From Frankiaceae bacterium (lineage in GTDB: Bacteria > Actinomycetota > Actinomycetes > Mycobacteriales > SCTD01): a DNA stretch of 64,000 nt. This document shows positions 13,712-57,068 of the stretch, piece by piece (positions within the stretch are counted from its first letter, which is position 1; each line of letters starts with the position of its first letter). The stretch covers positions 1,653 through 65,652 of the forward strand of contig JAENVS010000012.1 of assembly GCA_016650445.1 (NCBI GenBank). Direction: 5' to 3'. The translations under genes were made by a program, and so were the position numbers. The notes beneath the pieces are model-generated. The model did not search any database. It saw nothing but the letters and a program-made list of their open reading frames with translations, and was not told where the DNA came from.

Positions 13712-14245
13712 CTACGCGGGCTCCTCGAGCGACTCGTCGTAGGGCAGGTCGAGCCAGGGTCGCCAGCGTGGGTCGACCCGACGGGACCCGACGACCCGCC
13801 ACGCGGCCCCCGTCGGCGCCACCGGTTGCCGGCCAAGACGCCAGCCGAGCTCGGAGATCCCCCGGTCGGCCTTGATGTGGTTGCACCGGCCGCAGGCCGA
13901 GACGACGTTGTCCCAGGTGTGCGAGCCGCCCCTGCTCTTGGGGATGACGTGGTCGAGGCTGGTCGCGGCGGCGGCGCAGTAGACACACCGGCCGCCGTCC
14001 CTGGCGAACACCGCTTTGCGGGTCAGCGGAACGGTCGCCCGATAGGGAACCCGCACGAACTTCATGAGCCGTACGACGGACGGCACGGTCACCGCGGCCC
14101 GGGCGCTGTGCAGCACGCCGTCACCCTCGGCGACCGACACCGCCTTGGCCGTGAGCAGCAGGACGACGGCACGCCGGCTCGGCACGACGCACAGCGGCTC
14201 ATACGTGGCGTTGAGCACCAACGCCGCGCTGTCGAGACTCGCCAT
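13712..14245 (-). CDS. HNH endonuclease
   Basis: CVYC...DHVIPKSRGGSHTWDNVVSACGRCNHIK HNH motif. Confidence 0.8.
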   Translation of the reverse strand: MASLDSAALVLNATYEPLCVVPSRRAVVLLLTAKAVSVAEGDGVLHSARAAVTVPSVVRLMKFVRVPYRATVPLTRKAVFARDGGRCVYCAAAATSLDHVIPKSRGGSHTWDNVVSACGRCNHIKADRGISELGWRLGRQPVAPTGAAWRVVGSRRVDPRWRPWLDLPYDESLEEPA

Positions 14246-14319
14246 ACGTCCTCCCTGGGCTGATTCTGACCGACGGACGCCAGATCCGCCACGCCCTTGC
14301 GCTCGCCTAGGGTCGACCC

Positions 14320-15240
14320 GTGACCCTCAGCTCGACGTCAGCCGTCTCCCGCCGCGCACTCGAGCTGGCGACGACCCCCGCCCGCATCGCCCTGATCGTC
14401 CTGCTCGCCCTCGTGCTCCGGGTGCTCGTCAACCGGGCGATCCGTCGGCTGGTCACGGGCGCCGCGGAAGGCAGCGTCCCTGTCGTGCTCCGACCGTTGC
14501 ACGACCGCACGAAGGGCCGCCTGCTCGAGGCGACACCCCTCACGTCGGAGCGGCGCCGGCAGCGGGCCGAGACCATCGGGTCGGTGCTGCGGAGCAGCGC
14601 GGCACTGGTGATCTTCACCGTGGCCGGCGCGATGGTGCTCGCCGAGCTCGGCTTCGACCTCGCCCCCGTGCTGGCCAGCGCCGGCATCGTCGGGGTCGCG
14701 GTCGGGTTCGGCGCCCAGAACCTGATCAAGGACTTCCTCAACGGCATGTTCATGATCCTGGAGGACCAGTACGGCGTGGGCGACGTCATCGACGCCGGCG
14801 AGGCGACCGGCACCGTCGAGGCGGTGGGGCTGCGCACGACCCGGCTGCGGGACGTCGCCGGCACGGTCTGGCACATCCGCAACGGCGAGATCGTCCGGAT
14901 CGGCAACAAGAGCCAGGGCTGGGCGCGAGCGGTCCTCGACATCGCGGTCGCCTGGGACAGCGACGTCGATCAGGTCCGCAACGTGATGAAGGCAGCCGCG
15001 GACGGCATGGCCGCCGAGGAGGAGTGGGCCACGAGCATCACCGAGGCGCCGGAGGTCTGGGGCGTCGAGGACCTCGGCTCGTCCGGGCTGGTCGTGCGTC
15101 TCGCCGTGAAGACCGCGCCGCTCGAGCAGTGGAAGGTCGCGAGGGAGCTGCGCGAGCGGGTCAAGGTGGCGTTCGACCGCGAGGGGATCCAGATCGGGCT
15201 CCCGTCGGTGCGCAACGTGGAGAGCACGCCGCCTTCCTAG
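14320..15240 (+). CDS. Small-conductance mechanosensitive channel (MscS family)
   Basis: TM segments followed by LIKDFLNGMFMILEDQYGVGDVI..GTVEAVGLRTTRLRD MscS beta-domain signature. Confidence 0.85.
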   Translation: MTLSSTSAVSRRALELATTPARIALIVLLALVLRVLVNRAIRRLVTGAAEGSVPVVLRPLHDRTKGRLLEATPLTSERRRQRAETIGSVLRSSAALVIFTVAGAMVLAELGFDLAPVLASAGIVGVAVGFGAQNLIKDFLNGMFMILEDQYGVGDVIDAGEATGTVEAVGLRTTRLRDVAGTVWHIRNGEIVRIGNKSQGWARAVLDIAVAWDSDVDQVRNVMKAAADGMAAEEEWATSITEAPEVWGVEDLGSSGLVVRLAVKTAPLEQWKVARELRERVKVAFDREGIQIGLPSVRNVESTPPS

Positions 15241-15250
15241 ACTCGTGCAC

Positions 15251-15649
15251 ATGACGACGCTGTACGACGAGGTCGGGGGCGAGCCGACGTTCCGTCGCCT
15301 CGTCGACCTCTTCTACGCCGAGGTCGAGGGCGACCCGGTGCTGCGGCCGCTGTACCTCGAGGAGGACCTCGGCCCCGGGGGCGCGGCCCGCGACCGGCTG
15401 TCGCTGTTCCTCATGCAGTACTGGGGCGGTCCGACGACGTACTCCGACAACCGGGGTCACCCGCGGCTGCGGATGCGGCACGCCGGCTGGCGGATCGGCA
15501 GCGCCGAGCGCGATGCGTGGCTGGCGCACATGATGCGGGCGGTGGCTGCGTTGGACATCCCCGAGGACGCCCGCGAGCAGCTGGCCGACTACCTGACGGG
15601 TGCGGCCCACTCCCTCGTCAACGCGCCGGACGAGACGGACGCTCGCTGA
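15251..15649 (+). CDS. glbO: Group II truncated hemoglobin
   Basis: YDEVGG..QYWGGPTTYSDNRGHPRLRMRH..AHSLVN matches the GlbO (Rv2470) pattern. ATG 15251; an alternative GTG lies at 15245. Confidence 0.9.
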   Translation: MTTLYDEVGGEPTFRRLVDLFYAEVEGDPVLRPLYLEEDLGPGGAARDRLSLFLMQYWGGPTTYSDNRGHPRLRMRHAGWRIGSAERDAWLAHMMRAVAALDIPEDAREQLADYLTGAAHSLVNAPDETDAR

Positions 15650-15989
15650 GCCGGCGGGCGACGATCCAGCCGACGATGACGCCGGCGGCGTCGGCGCAGA
15701 CGTCCCGGACGTCGCCGCTGCGGCTCGCCAGCAGCAGCGACTGCGCCACCTCCGACAGGGCCGCGTAGGCGAGGACGGCCACGAGCCCGGCGCGGTGCGC
15801 CGCGAACCGCCACCACGTGGTCGCCGCGAGCAGCGCGAACAGGCTCGCGTGTACGAGCTTGTCCAGGCCGATCCCGCCCCCGCCCGGGGCACGCGGCGAG
15901 AAGAGCACGACGAGGCTGAGCACGACGACCGCGACGAACGCGACCGTCGCCCGCCGGTCGCCCGTGCCGGCGCCCGGCTGCGCAGTCAC
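15618..15989 (-). CDS. VanZ-like membrane protein
   Basis: Four hydrophobic segments and DKLVHA/DV.AD..G VanZ-like motifs. GTG at 15989 proposed as start. Confidence 0.55.
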   Translation of the reverse strand: MTAQPGAGTGDRRATVAFVAVVVLSLVVLFSPRAPGGGGIGLDKLVHASLFALLAATTWWRFAAHRAGLVAVLAYAALSEVAQSLLLASRSGDVRDVCADAAGVIVGWIVARRLSERPSRPAR

Positions 15990-16011
15990 CGCGTCAGGTG
16001 TCGCGGGTCGA

Positions 16012-16031
16012 TTTGGCAGCAAGCCCGGATG
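16012..16031. repeat. Left inverted repeat TTTGGCAGCAAGCCCGGATG
   Basis: Reverse complement of 17870-17890 with 1 mismatch and a 1-nt indel. Confidence 0.8.
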
Positions 16032-16072
16032 TTCGTCGGGAACTGTCAGAGGTGACTTGCACACTCGCAAGT

Positions 16073-17891
16073 ATGCCGTCCCGACCGCTGCTGCCCGTGC
16101 GCGTCGTGCCGCCGCCCAGCGGCACGAGCTGTGGGACGCGGCTGCGGGTCAGCCGGGAAGAGCGGGTCATGCTGCGCGCCGTCGGTGAGCACCTCGCGGC
16201 TGCTCGCGGATGTGACCTGCCTGCCGCGGTGCGGGGCGAGGCGCAGAACGACAGGGTGAAGCGCCTCAGCGCACGGTTCGGCATCCAGTCCCGCTATGCG
16301 GGCAGCATCGTGCGAGCCAATGACGCGCAGGTCCGGCTCGCCCGGGAGGGCCTGTGGCGGCACAAGCTCGGCCTGCAGCGCGGGATCGCAACCCTCGAGC
16401 GGCGGCTCGCGGCCGCGACTCGACGGGCGTGCGGCTGCGGCCAGCGACGGGGCTGCGAGGCGTGCAAAGACGGCTACCCGAACCGCAACGAGTGGTGGAG
16501 CAAGCGCCGGCGCCTCGACATGCTGAGAGGCCAGCTCGTCGAGGTCGAGCGCCGGCTGGCCGAGAAGGACTACTCGATCGTGTACGGCGGGCGGCGGCTG
16601 CTCAACAGGCGGCACCACTTGACCGAGGCAGGACTGACGCTCGCGCAGTGGCTGCAGCAGTGGGCCGATGAGCGGCTGTTTCTGTCCTGCGTTGGCAATG
16701 TCGGCACTACCGGCGGGAATCCGTGCCTGTCCTTGACGCAGGATCCAGACGGGCTCATGTACTTGACCGTGTCAGTGCCCGAGCCGGTGCAACGCCGGCT
16801 CGGCATACCAGCCCGAGTCCGGCTGACACACCCCGTCCCAGTCGCTCATCTGCCCGAGCTCGTGGAGCGGGTCACCGCCCGGCGCAGCACCGCGATCACC
16901 ATCACCTTCGAGCAGGGGAAGCGCGGCGAGCACGTAATGCTCCGGGCAGCCTGGACACACGAGCAGACCCCGGACCAACCGGACCTGCAGGTGTTACGTA
17001 CTCGCCGGGTCGTCGCGCTGGACCTCAACGCCGACCACCTGGCGCTGTCCCGGCTCAACCCCGACGGCAACCCCGTCGGGACGCCGCTACGGATCGCGCT
17101 CGAACTCAAGGGTCTGCCCACCGGCACGAGGGACGCGAGACTTCGCGAGGCGATCACGCAGGTGCTGCACGCCGCGGCGGAGTTCGGTGCCCAGGCGATG
17201 GTGGTCGAGGAACTTGGTTTCGAGCAGGAGACGACCCGGGAGAAGCACGGCCGCAAGAAGGCGTTCCGGGCGCTGATCTCCGGCTTCCCGACGATGGCGT
17301 TTCGCAACCGGCTGGTTCCGATGGCTGCCCGTCAGGGTCTTGCGGTCATCGCGGTCGACCCGCGGTATACGTCCAAGGCCGGTGGCCGGGACTGGTCCTA
17401 CGTGCTCGCCGGTGGCCCGACGGCCACTGAGGCATCCAAGAACGTCGCGACCCGGCATCAAGGTGCCGCGGTCGCGATCGGTCGGCGCGGACTCGCGCAC
17501 GGCCTGACTGCCAGCACACCGGCCCGCACGCGGGCACGAATGCTGAGCCGTCGTCCCGCACCCCACCAGCAGCAGCCACAGACCGCGTCAGCGGCCTCGG
17601 CGGCTGGGGATGGAAGCACGACCGGCCCCGCGGGTCAGGTGCGGCTCAGCGACAGCGCGCAGGTCAGCCGTGACGCCCGCGACCGGCCGGTTCAAGCGGC
17701 CCGGAGCAGTCCGCGGGTCCGATCGGCGTCCATCCCAGGCCTTCGGGTCGGGCGTGGCAGCGCTGACCGGACTGGCGGGGCGAGCCGATCGTCGCGGATA
17801 GGTTCCGCGACCGGTCAGCCGCTCGGGCTGATCGGAACAGGAGCAGACCGGGTTGAGCTATCAACCGTGCATCCGGCGCTTGCTGCCGAAC

Positions 17892-17908
<17 letters not shown>
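16073..17908 (+). CDS. TnpB-related (RuvC-fold, Cas12/TnpB-like) protein lacking zinc ribbon and RuvC-III Asp
   Basis: Motifs VVALDLNADHLAL (Asp codon 17021-17023), AMVVEELGF (17207-17212), AVDPRYTSK (17357 onward) and TRHQGAAVAIGRRGL (His 17456-17458). ATG at 16073, alternative GTG at 16052. The ORF only stops at 17906-17908, inside the flanking ettA. Confidence 0.7.
17870..17890. repeat. Right inverted repeat CATCCGGCGCTTGCTGCCGAA
   Basis: Pairs with 16012-16031. Ends 1 nt before the ettA stop codon (17892-17894). Confidence 0.8.
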
Positions 17909-19577
<1,669 letters not shown>

Positions 19578-19599
19578 GGGGACACAGGCTAGTAGCCCC

Positions 19600-20031
19600 T
19601 CAGGCGGCGACCTGGTCGACCGCAGGCTGCTCGGGGATGACCTCACCGGTGACCGGGTCGGCTGACACACGCTCGAACCGCTTCTGCTGGACCGGCCCCC
19701 GGGTGAGGTCCATGCCGACCGACGTGGCGTCGATCTCGCTGCTGACCCGATCCACGCCCTCCTTGTCCTTCCACGTGCTCGTCGAGAAGCTGCCGGTGAC
19801 GATCACCTTGTCGCCCTTGTTGAACGACATCGCTGCGTGCTCGGCGAGCGAACGCCAACACGTCACCCGGAACCAGAGCGTCTCTTGATCGACCCATGTC
19901 TCGCTGGTCCGGTCGAACCGGCTCGGTGTCATGGCAACCGAGAAGGACGTCACGAAGGTCCCGTCGGCCAGGGAGCGCAGCTTCGGGCTCGCTCCGACGT
20001 TTCCAACGACGGTCATCTGGGGTGCGTTCAC
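19600..20031 (-). CDS. Single-stranded DNA-binding protein paralog (Rv2478c-like)
   Basis: OB-fold pattern (TVVGNVG..P.LR...G..V.SF.VA......W..V.CW..LAE....KGD.V.V.G). Conserved position next to ettA. Confidence 0.75.
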   Translation of the reverse strand: MNAPQMTVVGNVGASPKLRSLADGTFVTSFSVAMTPSRFDRTSETWVDQETLWFRVTCWRSLAEHAAMSFNKGDKVIVTGSFSTSTWKDKEGVDRVSSEIDATSVGMDLTRGPVQQKRFERVSADPVTGEVIPEQPAVDQVAA

Positions 20032-55378: not shown

Positions 55379-57068
55379 CGACAGGGGTGAACACACCGGC
55401 CGGCTGGACGACGAGCTTCTCGACGCTGCCGTCCGCTGCGAGCACGAAGTCCAGGCGGGTGCCGGACTGGCCGGGCACGTCGAAGTGCGTCGCGTCCCGG
55501 GCGGTGAGCGCAACCGGCTTGCCGCCGGCGACCGCCGCCTGCAGCGCACCGTCGACGACCGTGACGACCGCCGTCAGGGGACCCATCTCATAGGTTCCCG
55601 CCAGCCGATCGAGCTCTGCCTTGTCGAGCTGCGGGGGTTGCCGGGCGAAGAAGATCGGGTCCACCGCGGGCTCGAGACCGATCTCGATGCCCGCGATCCC
55701 GTCGTACGCCGGTCGGAACACGAACGGCATCGCCGTGTCCTCGTAGTGGCTGCCGAGCAGCAGGTCCCAGCTGTCGCGGTCGCGGTGCCGCAGCTCGATG
55801 GTGTCGAGCCCGTGCCACTCGGGCACCAGAACATCGCCATCGACGCGGACGACGAACTCGTCGTACGCCGGATGCGTGTAGGTGCCGGCGAACTCCTGGA
55901 GCGGACGGCTGGGCGGCCGACCCGCGGCTGCGGTCGCGTTGTGCGCCGAGGCGGCCCGCATGCCGCCCTTGAACGCGCTCATGAGCTCGAACAACCGCGC
56001 CCCCCACGGTTCGGGCTCGAGGCCGAGCAGCCGGTCGAAGATATCGAGCGGCAGGGACGTGCGGATGCCCGAGCTGTGCGCGTTGGCCAGCACGACGACG
56101 GCGTGGCCGGCCTCGGGTGCGAGGTAGACGTCGGAGCAGAAGCCGTGCAGGTTGCCGCCGTGGTGCACCAACCGGTGCCCGCGGTAGGACTCCACCGAGG
56201 CGGCCAGTCCATAGCCGAGGCTGTGCATCCCCGGCAGGTCGAGCGGGGTGGGCGGCTTGACCATCGCCGGCGAGTGCAGCTCGCGCAGGGCGTTGCCGGT
56301 AAGCAGCTTCGTGCCGTCAGGGAGCGGGACCTCGAGGCGCGCGAGCACCCAGCTGGCCATCTCCTCGGCGTTGGACCAGATGCCACCCGCCGGCCCGTGC
56401 GACCCGTCGCCGAGGTCGGGCACGGCGACGTTCTCGCCGGTGAGATCGGTGTACGGCGTGGCGTAGTCGCCGCTCGCATGCGCGGACCTGCGACCGTTCG
56501 TGGTGCGCTTCATGCCGAGGCGGTCGAACAGCCGCGCCTGGAGCGTCGCCTCCCAGTCGGAGCCGCCGAGCACACCGGCGATGTAGCCCGCTGTCGTGTA
56601 ACAGAGGTTGTTGTACTGCCAGGTCTGCCGCAGCGGCGTCGACGGCTGGAGGTGACGCAGCCGGCGTACGACCTCCTCCGACGGGGGCGTCTTGGTGCCG
56701 AACCACAGGGCGTCGTGCCGCGGCAGCCCGGTGCGGTGCGCAAGCAGGTCACGCATGCTGACCAGCTCGGTCGCGTGCGGGTCCTGCATGCGGAACCACG
56801 GCAGGACGTCGCGGATCGGCGCGTCCCACTCGAGCTTGCCCTCGTCGACGAAGGTCGCGCAGAGCGCTGCGGTGAACGCCTTGCTGTCCGACGCGATCGC
56901 GAAGAGCGTCTCTGGTGTCGCCGGTTCGTCCTTCTCCAGGTTGCGCGATCCGAAGCCCTCGGAGAGAAGGACCTCTCGGTTCCGGACGACGACGACGGAG
57001 AGCCCCGCGACGCCGAAGCGCTCTCGCTCCTGCTCGATGAGGTCACGCAGCTGCTGCACGTCGGTCAC
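55371..57068 (-). CDS. Beta-lactamase-fold serine hydrolase (class C/PBP4*-like) with C-terminal extra domain
   Basis: SDSK (SxxK), YNN-like and HGG motifs. 565 aa. Confidence 0.85.
   Translation of the reverse strand: MTDVQQLRDLIEQERERFGVAGLSVVVVRNREVLLSEGFGSRNLEKDEPATPETLFAIASDSKAFTAALCATFVDEGKLEWDAPIRDVLPWFRMQDPHATELVSMRDLLAHRTGLPRHDALWFGTKTPPSEEVVRRLRHLQPSTPLRQTWQYNNLCYTTAGYIAGVLGGSDWEATLQARLFDRLGMKRTTNGRRSAHASGDYATPYTDLTGENVAVPDLGDGSHGPAGGIWSNAEEMASWVLARLEVPLPDGTKLLTGNALRELHSPAMVKPPTPLDLPGMHSLGYGLAASVESYRGHRLVHHGGNLHGFCSDVYLAPEAGHAVVVLANAHSSGIRTSLPLDIFDRLLGLEPEPWGARLFELMSAFKGGMRAASAHNATAAAGRPPSRPLQEFAGTYTHPAYDEFVVRVDGDVLVPEWHGLDTIELRHRDRDSWDLLLGSHYEDTAMPFVFRPAYDGIAGIEIGLEPAVDPIFFARQPPQLDKAELDRLAGTYEMGPLTAVVTVVDGALQAAVAGGKPVALTARDATHFDVPGQSGTRLDFVLAADGSVEKLVVQPAGVFTPVVG

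Follow-up and report, generated by a model that had tools for sequence, protein, structure and literature searches.

Evidence for a mobile insertion sequence with terminal inverted repeats, a TnpB-fold gene and a structured, omega-RNA-like 3' end in a Frankiaceae bacterium

The stretch of DNA analyzed here (the window) comprises 64,000 nucleotides of contig JAENVS010000012.1 from a Frankiaceae bacterium (assembly GCA_016650445.1), and all coordinates are those of the window unless a locus is named. Its hairpin-rich region ending at 17893 is very probably the right end of an insertion sequence of 1,885 bp which has terminal inverted repeats (TIRs) and a target-site duplication, carries a TnpB-fold gene, and possesses a 3' scaffold resembling that of an omega-RNA. 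A first-pass annotation had described nested hairpins at 17762-17890, followed by a 21-nt segment complementary to the region upstream of the gene. It took the segment to be either a self-targeting guide or a plain terminal inverted repeat. All of the strings quoted there were found in place: GCTGACCGG (17762-17770), GTCGCGGA, TAGGT and TCCGCGAC (17791-17811), CCGGTCAGC (17811-17819), GGTTGA, GCTA and TCAACC (17851-17866), and the 21-mer CATCCGGCGCTTGCTGCCGAA. Sequence comparison with related elements showed the 21-mer to be the right TIR, with 16009-16031 as its partner. The element and its flanks have the following features:

16009-17893, plus strand: whole insertion sequence, 1,885 bp, from CGA-TTTGGCAGCAAG to CTTGCTGCCGAA-CCT; boundaries taken from the 13 related elements and from occupied locus L167 against empty locus L174
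16009-16031, plus strand: left TIR, with a mutated tip (CGA TTTGG against CGG TTCGG in the family)
17870-17893, plus strand: right TIR, the 21-mer (17870-17890) plus CCT
15994-15996, minus strand: former stop codon of ettA (TCA on the plus strand, TGA on the minus strand), stranded on the left flank
15996-16005, no strand: left target-site duplication, AGGTGTCGCG, decayed, 8/10 identical to the right copy
16006-16008: 3-nt insertion GGT between the left duplication and the left tip, the shift having been aligned by eye
17892-17894, minus strand: present ettA stop codon TAG, made of the element's last two bases and the first base of the duplication
17894-17903, no strand: right target-site duplication, AGTCGTCGCG, where a guide would start if the RNA is omega-RNA-like

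The core of the repeat, GGTTCGGCAGCAAG, was found at both ends of 12 other loci lying in unrelated gene contexts, giving 13 elements with the window copy, and the fallback reading of a plain terminal inverted repeat proved to be the correct one. Across these 13 elements, which occupy different insertion sites, the outer 14 nt of the 21-mer are identical; since a guide would vary from site to site, this constancy identifies the segment as a TIR and not as a guide. With slashes marking the junctions, left ends follow the pattern TC/AG-N8/CGG TTCGGCAGCAAG and right ends the pattern CTTGCTGCCGAA CCT/AG-N8/GA. The repeat extends 20-35 bp inward (about 33 bp in close relatives), and its inner part varies between subclades. 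Each end also contains an internal inverted copy of the TIR core: at the right end AGCAAGCCCGGA lies about 27 nt before TCCGGGCTTGCT, and at the left end GTTGCTGCCGAC comes about 65 nt after TTCGGCAGCAAG.

The reported complementarity between the 21-mer and 16012-16031 was confirmed. The reverse complement of 17870-17890 (TTCGGCAGCAAGCGCCGGATG) differs from 16012-16031 (TTTGGCAGCAAGC-CCGGATG) by one mismatch and one single-base bulge. The local-alignment score of this inverted repeat is 30, and the best upstream/downstream matches at homologous loci without a terminal repeat score 19-38 by the same procedure; taken by itself the score is within the background range, and it is the comparison with relatives which establishes the repeat as real. 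Unrelated sequence at the position of the 21-mer in homologous elements, which the first-pass annotation had named as a sign against its guide reading, was not encountered. The opposite was seen, the 21-mer being conserved together with the left repeat, as a TIR predicts.

In a search of the 64-kb window for further TIR copies, only the two ends of the element were found to match well. A one-mismatch match to the TIR core at 56691-56704 on the minus strand (GGTTCGGCACCAAG) was judged to be due to chance because it has no CCTAG tip and no partner and lies in coding-like sequence. An exact 14-mer scan of viral contigs gave 120 single matches and no paired ends, which were likewise attributed to chance. 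Among plasmids, a blastn search with one left end returned nothing, and tblastn returned only relatives of less than 43% identity.

The 10-bp direct repeat flanking the elements is perfect in five loci, with 9/10 identical positions in two others and 8/10 in three. In Blastococcus saxobsidens the element adjoins a gene for enoyl-CoA hydratase, whose 92%-identical orthologue in B. capsensis keeps these neighbours but lacks the element. GGCTC AGCTACCGGT GAATCGCGG is the sequence of this syntenic empty site, and that of the B. saxobsidens site with the element inserted is GGCTC AGCTCCCGGT (1,891 bp) AGCTCCCGGT GAACCGCGG; directly to the right of the 10-mer these sites have GAATCG and GAACCG, respectively. 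This comparison establishes the 10-mer as a genuine target-site duplication, with the element spanning CGG to CCT. As the empty site has a single copy, an origin of the 10-bp repeat from the element itself or from a copied guide was ruled out. The target is partly symmetric (TC-N10-GA), in that the duplication is preceded by TC, the last two bases of the left flank, at all 13 loci and followed by GA at 10 of 12. The duplication begins with AG at each of the 13. GCTC stands in the left flank of 10 of them, and at the empty site it is joined directly to the right-flank sequence. Conservation ends at CCT, the right flank being different at every site.

The TCA on the left flank corresponds to the TGA at which a gene running convergently to the TnpB-like open reading frame (ORF) formerly stopped; at the empty site L174, GGC TCA G contains the stop of the target gene. 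After insertion the terminal CT of the element and the first A of the duplication provide the convergent gene with an in-frame TAG. In 12 of the 13 loci a long open frame, of 90 to more than 499 codons, is terminated by this element-borne codon. The interrupted gene in the window is ettA, encoding an ABC-F protein (Pfam). As judged from the flanking sequences, the element is inserted on the TGA stop of ettA, between this gene and a vanZ-like gene. The vanZ-like ORF (minus strand; Pfam VanZ, E 8.5e-10) has its likeliest start at GTG 15989, 5 nt downstream of the former ettA TGA, and because the two lie so near each other the insertion most likely placed 1.9 kb between ettA and vanZ, formerly a tandem and possibly co-transcribed pair. 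The interval 15990-16072, previously proposed to be a promoter region shared by the vanZ and tnpB-like genes, consists of the left junction and the left end of the element.

Homologues with 68-78% identity to the window protein lie between unrelated genes, and those with 45-57% identity (Blastococcus, Nocardioides and metagenome-assembled genomes, MAGs) were also found in differing neighbourhoods. Based on the different neighbours at every locus and the flanking duplications, the element is mobile and is not a domesticated regulator; a domesticated, syntenic TldR-like gene was ruled out by the differing neighbourhoods. Only one ORF is present in every one of the 13 elements, which are 1.7-1.9 kb long. 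A young copy is located at about 79.8-81.7 kb of FO117623.1 (B. saxobsidens DD2), and others are carried by the genomes of B. capsensis (JASNNW01) and Nocardioides ginsengisegetis (JACGXA01).

A further clade of the same protein family (35-41% identical) occurs in Streptomyces, where it is multi-copy within genomes; two S. lutosisoli copies are 99.6% identical over 1,838 bp. The members of this sister clade (L006-L080, from Streptomyces, Nonomuraea, Actinomadura and Mycobacterium; e.g. L042 3780-5616 and L046 3780-5617) have asymmetric, IS605-like ends (GGGGTTGTGAACAGG ... CTCTAGGAACGGT) with neither TIR nor target duplication. Thus, one protein family uses two kinds of transposon end.

The gene product was investigated by homology searches and structure prediction. 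The ORF is as follows:

16073-17908, plus strand: TnpB-like ORF, read as 611 aa; protein conservation runs to about residue 480 (about 17515)

A hypothetical protein from a Frankiaceae MAG has the identical sequence, and homologues are numerous in actinobacteria, relatives being encoded at at least 520 places in species-representative genomes and at least 453 in metagenomes. No match was obtained in a Pfam scan, which included the OrfB families and transposase domains, and the NCBIfam TnpB models remained below threshold (TIGR01766, 28.4 bits with a cut-off of 32; NF040570, 26.5 with a cut-off of 100). An AlphaFold model built with 95 homologues (pLDDT 87.5, pTM 0.80) has the WED-REC-RuvC fold of the TnpB, Cas12f and Fanzor structures. 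Full-length Foldseek matches were AsCas12f (7wju and 8j12, E 1e-8), Cas12k (8bd5), Fanzor2 (9b0l), Cas12m and Cas12g, the E values for AsCas12f, Cas12k, Fanzor2 and Cas12m ranging from 1e-8 to 1e-5, and RuvC resolvases matched the C-terminal domain of the model. On this predicted structure and the weak NCBIfam matches, the sole gene of the element was shown to encode a protein of genuine TnpB/Cas12 fold, in agreement with the earlier designation as TnpB-like.

A hidden Markov model alignment to Cas12f1 (9i8y) spans the region from RuvC-II to the YTS motif. Among the 95 homologues, RuvC-I D317 (DLNADH) is nearly invariant (at least 90%) and RuvC-II E379 (VEELGF) is invariant. The RuvC-III motif reads T-R-H-x-G-A-A-V-A-I-G-R-R with an invariant H462, in place of the canonical D-x-N-A-A-x-N-I. 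The C4 zinc finger is missing, there being no CxxC pairs between the YTS and RuvC-III motifs. A CxCx5CxxC motif (CGCGQRRGCEAC) at about 16436-16471 (residues ~122-133) is present in all of the TIR-clade proteins and not in the TIR-less Streptomyces clade; judging from its sequence, it may be a clade-specific zinc knuckle correlating with the change of transposon ends.

The tail of the ORF is not protein-like, since amino-acid conservation stops near residue 480, the codon-position GC bias is gone after about 17420, and insertions and deletions in the right-end alignment are not multiples of three. In relatives the ORF stops at a TGA inside hairpin C (see below), which in the window lies out of frame at 17829-17831. 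The window copy misses this stop through a 1-nt insertion near 17821 and runs on to 17908, overlapping the end of ettA. By this alignment the last ~26 codons of the 611-aa ORF are a decay artefact.

In place of a coding tail, the 3' end has a conserved sense-strand structure, and to this extent the proposed omega-RNA-like layout was upheld. The 206 nt at 17690-17895 fold on the plus strand with -115 kcal/mol (z -4.5; none of 200 shuffles as good), compared with -94.3 kcal/mol (z -1.8) on the minus strand. The 13 right ends of the TIR clade were aligned (alignment A2) and paired cells were counted for each helix. The resulting structure, which reaches about 180 nt upstream of the right tip, comprises:

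17718-17771, plus strand: helix 1, 17718-17738 paired with 17748-17771; 19 pairs, 90-93% paired, 11 changed on both sides; present in the minimum-free-energy fold
17791-17811, plus strand: hairpin B, GTCGCGGA/TAGGT/TCCGCGAC; 92% of cells paired, compensatory changes at two pairs
17811-17835, plus strand: hairpin C, CCGGTCAGCC / GGCTGATCGG; holds the stop-codon position of the family
17842-17884, plus strand: terminal hairpin, AGCAGACCGGG (17842-17852) paired with the inner part of the right TIR (17872-17884)
17888-17894, plus strand: terminal 7 nt, GAACCUA, matching the hairpin B loop by complementarity in a candidate pseudoknot beside the scaffold/guide boundary

As a whole, 88.3% of the cells are paired in this structure, compared with 29-43% when the partners are slid. 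Covariation across homologous elements, which had been suggested as a check, is present: 20 pairs are changed on both sides among the 13 right ends, a value reached by none of 500 shuffles. The nested hairpins described earlier survive in part. The inner one is hairpin B, but the outer stem (17762-17770 with 17811-17819) is paired in 63.5% of the cells and competes with the better-supported helix 1, of which GCTGACCGG is the 3' strand. The second hairpin (17851-17866; 47%) is peculiar to the window copy and sits in the loop of the terminal hairpin. For the terminal hairpin itself 86.5% of the cells are paired, and four pairs are changed on both sides between subclades. In the MAFFT alignment the paired share of hairpin C is 71%, lowered in part by a subgroup that sits one base out of register. 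Its 3' strand (17826-17835; also L081, L161 and L162) reads GGC TGA GCG and resembles the target consensus in gene orientation, GC TGA GC, which may be a coincidence or a link to target choice.

The loop of hairpin B (17799-17805) is UAGGUUC in 12 of the 13 elements and UAGGUUU in one, and its complementarity to the tip amounts to 7/7 pairs in all 13. The 21-mer, mostly base-paired in the terminal hairpin and the pseudoknot tip, is in this respect also ill-suited to the guide role once proposed for it. A covarying homologue of hairpin B (GAACGCCC/GGGCGUUC) occurs in the Streptomyces clade, where the complementarity of loop and tip amounts to 7/7 pairs in 19 of 35 elements and 6/7 in the rest. 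The loop there is ACCGUUC and the tip GAACGGU, and relative to the TIR clade both partners differ in three of the seven pairs. As the Streptomyces clade has no TIR, its loop is no copy of a TIR tip, and intramolecular pairing explains both clades. Recurrent G-U pairs and the asymmetry in fold energy argue that the structure is specific to the sense strand.

Based upon this structure, its position and the protein fold, the region would be an omega-RNA-like scaffold that is released from the transcript's 3' end by processing and binds the TnpB-like protein. Its guide would then be supplied by the right flank beyond 17893, which in the window begins at 17894 and is antisense to the end of ettA. 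Such a guide would match the uninserted site next to the GCTC of the left flank, which would act as a putative target-adjacent motif (TAM), and the ribonucleoprotein would recognize empty sites by analogy with other TnpB elements. Transposition itself would involve a cut with a 10-bp stagger.

Several observations weigh against this interpretation. The preference for RNA over single-stranded DNA follows only from the strand asymmetry and the G-U pairs. An Rfam scan of 14000-20000 with E values up to 1 gave no match. Covariance model R1, run on all 172 loci, found the 13 TIR-clade ends and one weak match (L103, E 0.03), and did not detect the Streptomyces clade. The pseudoknot pairs are invariant within each clade, so that their support is a single switch between clades. 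H462 is placed at the usual position of the RuvC-III Asp by an alignment by eye and by the start of the last helix in the model, with no structural superposition; a phmmer search of the C-terminal 77 aa against the PDB, made to align RuvC-III, was uninformative. No transposase was found, the TnpB-like gene being the sole ORF of the element and no partner with the same TIRs being present in the 64-kb window or in the fetched loci. Finally, we know of no characterized prokaryotic TnpB in which TAM/guide logic is combined with a variable 10-bp duplication.

The weakly matching locus L103 (992-1230) is a lower-GC metagenomic relative with a protein of 46% identity, in which the match to the RNA model falls at the expected place. 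Its right end reads CTCTTGCTGCCGAAC and then TGGGAG, not CCTAG, and may represent an intermediate or a variant tip. A simple promoter and terminator scan of 15900-18000 gave no sigma-70-like site and nothing informative.

Of the other explanations, the guide hypothesis in its full form holds that the 21-mer is an omega-RNA guide steering a possibly nuclease-dead TnpB-like protein to the left repeat, in a TldR-like autoregulation. The complementarity exists, the fold is that of a TnpB whose RuvC-III is altered, the start codon follows the left repeat at a distance of 40-60 nt, and TldRs can work with guides down to 9 nt (bioRxiv 10.64898/2026.09.22.753285). We nevertheless regard it as very unlikely. 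The outer 14 nt are the same in all 13 elements and the repeat is always the element boundary next to the target duplication; self-targeting is not supported where the proposed guide is a conserved TIR and the gene is mobile and non-syntenic. Moreover, the 21-mer is paired within a conserved structure, and a distinct boundary between TAM and guide is missing, the repeat of close relatives being about 33 bp long. Unlike TldRs, the family has an invariant E379 and H462 and a nearly invariant D317, and in the window copy a bulge at position 8 and a mismatch break the duplex. That hairpins and repeat arose by chance in a GC-rich intergenic or ORF-tail region, as the background-range score of the window repeat might suggest, is hardly conceivable in view of the repeat at both ends of 12 other loci, the empty site and the covariation. 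An IS110-type bridge RNA was ruled out, the protein being no DEDD/Tnp-domain recombinase and the duplication being 10 bp long.

The hairpins might also be DNA features of a transposon end, either transposase-binding sites or single-strand hairpins of the IS200/IS605 type, with no RNA involved. The structure reaches about 180 nt inward, well past the usual end-binding sites, and is asymmetric between strands, and TIRs with a 10-bp duplication indicate double-strand transposition rather than a single-strand hairpin mechanism. An internal inverted copy of the TIR core does occur at each end, the loop of hairpin B resembles the TIR tip, and G-T wobble pairs form in DNA too; however, the complementarity of loop and tip is kept in the TIR-less Streptomyces clade, and all of the solved proteins of this fold matched by Foldseek are RNA-guided. 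We consider this reading improbable. The same low probability is given to the TnpB-like protein being itself the transposase, an Asp-Glu-His RuvC site cutting and joining the ends with a 10-bp stagger, perhaps with the help of RNA. It would account for the single ORF in each of the 13 elements, for the perfect duplications and near-perfect TIRs that indicate recent movement, for the absence of a partner element with the same TIRs from the 64-kb window and every fetched locus, and for the CxCx5CxxC motif that distinguishes the TIR clade from the TIR-less one. In addition, both transferred strands end in 3' bases with which the loop UAGGUUC could pair (GAACCT at the right end, GAACCG at the left). 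Against it, to our knowledge no TnpB-family protein transposes DNA, the negative result for a partner covers only the window and the fetched loci, and the Streptomyces members of this protein family possess ends of the IS605 kind, with neither TIR nor duplication. Solo TnpBs within the ends of DDE elements are documented as well and are explained by mobilization in trans (PMC10691335). A TnpB-derived, RNA-assisted transposase of cut-and-paste or copy-paste type that selects and repairs TGA stops thus appears unlikely, and the insertion sequence with an omega-RNA-like scaffold is retained as the best explanation.

Compared with the TnpB/omega-RNA systems of IS200/IS605 and IS607 (e.g. ISDra2), the window element shares the TnpB/Cas12f fold, a structured region overlapping the 3' end of the ORF and ending at the transposon tip, and a conserved left-flank motif that could be a TAM. 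TnpB genes typically have their 3' end, with the omega-RNA, no more than 250 bp from the end of the transposon (PMC10691335). The candidate pairing of the 3' tip with an upstream loop resembles the pseudoknot that the 3' end of prokaryotic omega-RNAs makes with the scaffold (OMEGA review, PMC13565253). Unlike IS200/IS605 and IS607, which have neither TIRs nor target duplications (PMC13565253, PMC3119063), it possesses TIRs of 20-35 bp and a 10-bp duplication, and no TnpA or second ORF was seen within the element in the ORF listing of it and the fetched loci. The RuvC-III His, the missing zinc finger, the NCBIfam scores below cut-off and the lack of Pfam and Rfam matches are further differences. 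The Streptomyces sister clade, on the other hand, fits the description of IS200/IS605 ends.

The protein fits the hallmarks of RIIIr-4, a major TnpB clade with a RuvC-III Asp-to-His change and no C4 zinc finger which is probably active, according to Altae-Tran et al. 2023 (PMC10691335). Both hallmarks are seen in its sequence (H462 invariant, C4 zinc finger absent), the assignment being made by description; TIRs, a 10-bp duplication and stop-codon insertion are not mentioned for the clade in the main text of that paper. TldRs resemble the window protein in being TnpB-derived with an altered C-terminal RuvC region, and a guide directed at a nearby promoter was what the first-pass annotation proposed. 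They differ in being immobile, having a fixed partner gene, having lost the catalytic residues and carrying a guide to a host promoter, whereas the window gene is mobile, retains Asp, Glu and a conserved His, and its proposed guide is a TIR. By these sequence features the element is not a TldR.

The DDE partners of TnpB genes, of the IS630, ISL2 and IS1031 types, produce duplications of 2-3 bp. In this length, and in having no DDE transposase gene in the element or the sequence examined, the window element with its 10-bp duplication is unlike the DDE-associated TnpBs. Like DDE insertion sequences in general it has TIRs and a duplication of fixed length, but it does not encode the DDE transposase. 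Solo TnpBs inside the inverted-repeat ends of DDE elements are described in PMC10691335, which explains them by mobilization in trans. Such solo genes and the Fanzor transposons with TIRs and target-site duplications (PMC10691335, PMC13565253) share with the window element a TnpB-family gene enclosed by these features and an RNA scaffold running to the right end.

In the literature searched on actinobacterial TnpBs with TIRs and target-site duplications, on stop-codon insertion and on actinobacterial TldR clades, the element was not described. Prokaryotic TnpB elements are defined by the lack of inverted repeats and duplications and by dependence on TnpA, and the present lineage, a well-delimited actinobacterial group of solo TnpB-like genes with TIRs and a verified 10-bp duplication, departs from that. 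We know of no characterized member of the TnpB type with the Asp-to-His change and without the zinc finger. By inserting on a TGA and rebuilding the stop, the element can persist in compact operons at little cost. The TIR clade and its IS605-like sister clade with a homologous RNA provide a natural experiment on a TnpB/omega-RNA module switching transposition mechanisms. Blastococcus saxobsidens DD2, being a cultured host with a young copy and a known empty site, is suited to tests of what moves the element, of the role of the His-containing RuvC site and of the flank as guide. For annotation, the tail of the 611-aa ORF and the repeat taken for a promoter element in the window are transposon-end features.

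The window copy is evidently an old insertion, judging from its mutated left tip, the GGT insert, the two duplication copies agreeing at 8/10 positions and the frameshifted ORF tail. The loop of its terminal hairpin has a 9-nt deletion and the private hairpin at 17851-17866 mentioned above. About 2 kb upstream of the element, an ORF on the minus strand (13712-14245) has an HNH-like motif (CVYC...). A gene for an HNH protein (Pfam HNH) also adjoins the element in L169, which is probably a coincidence.

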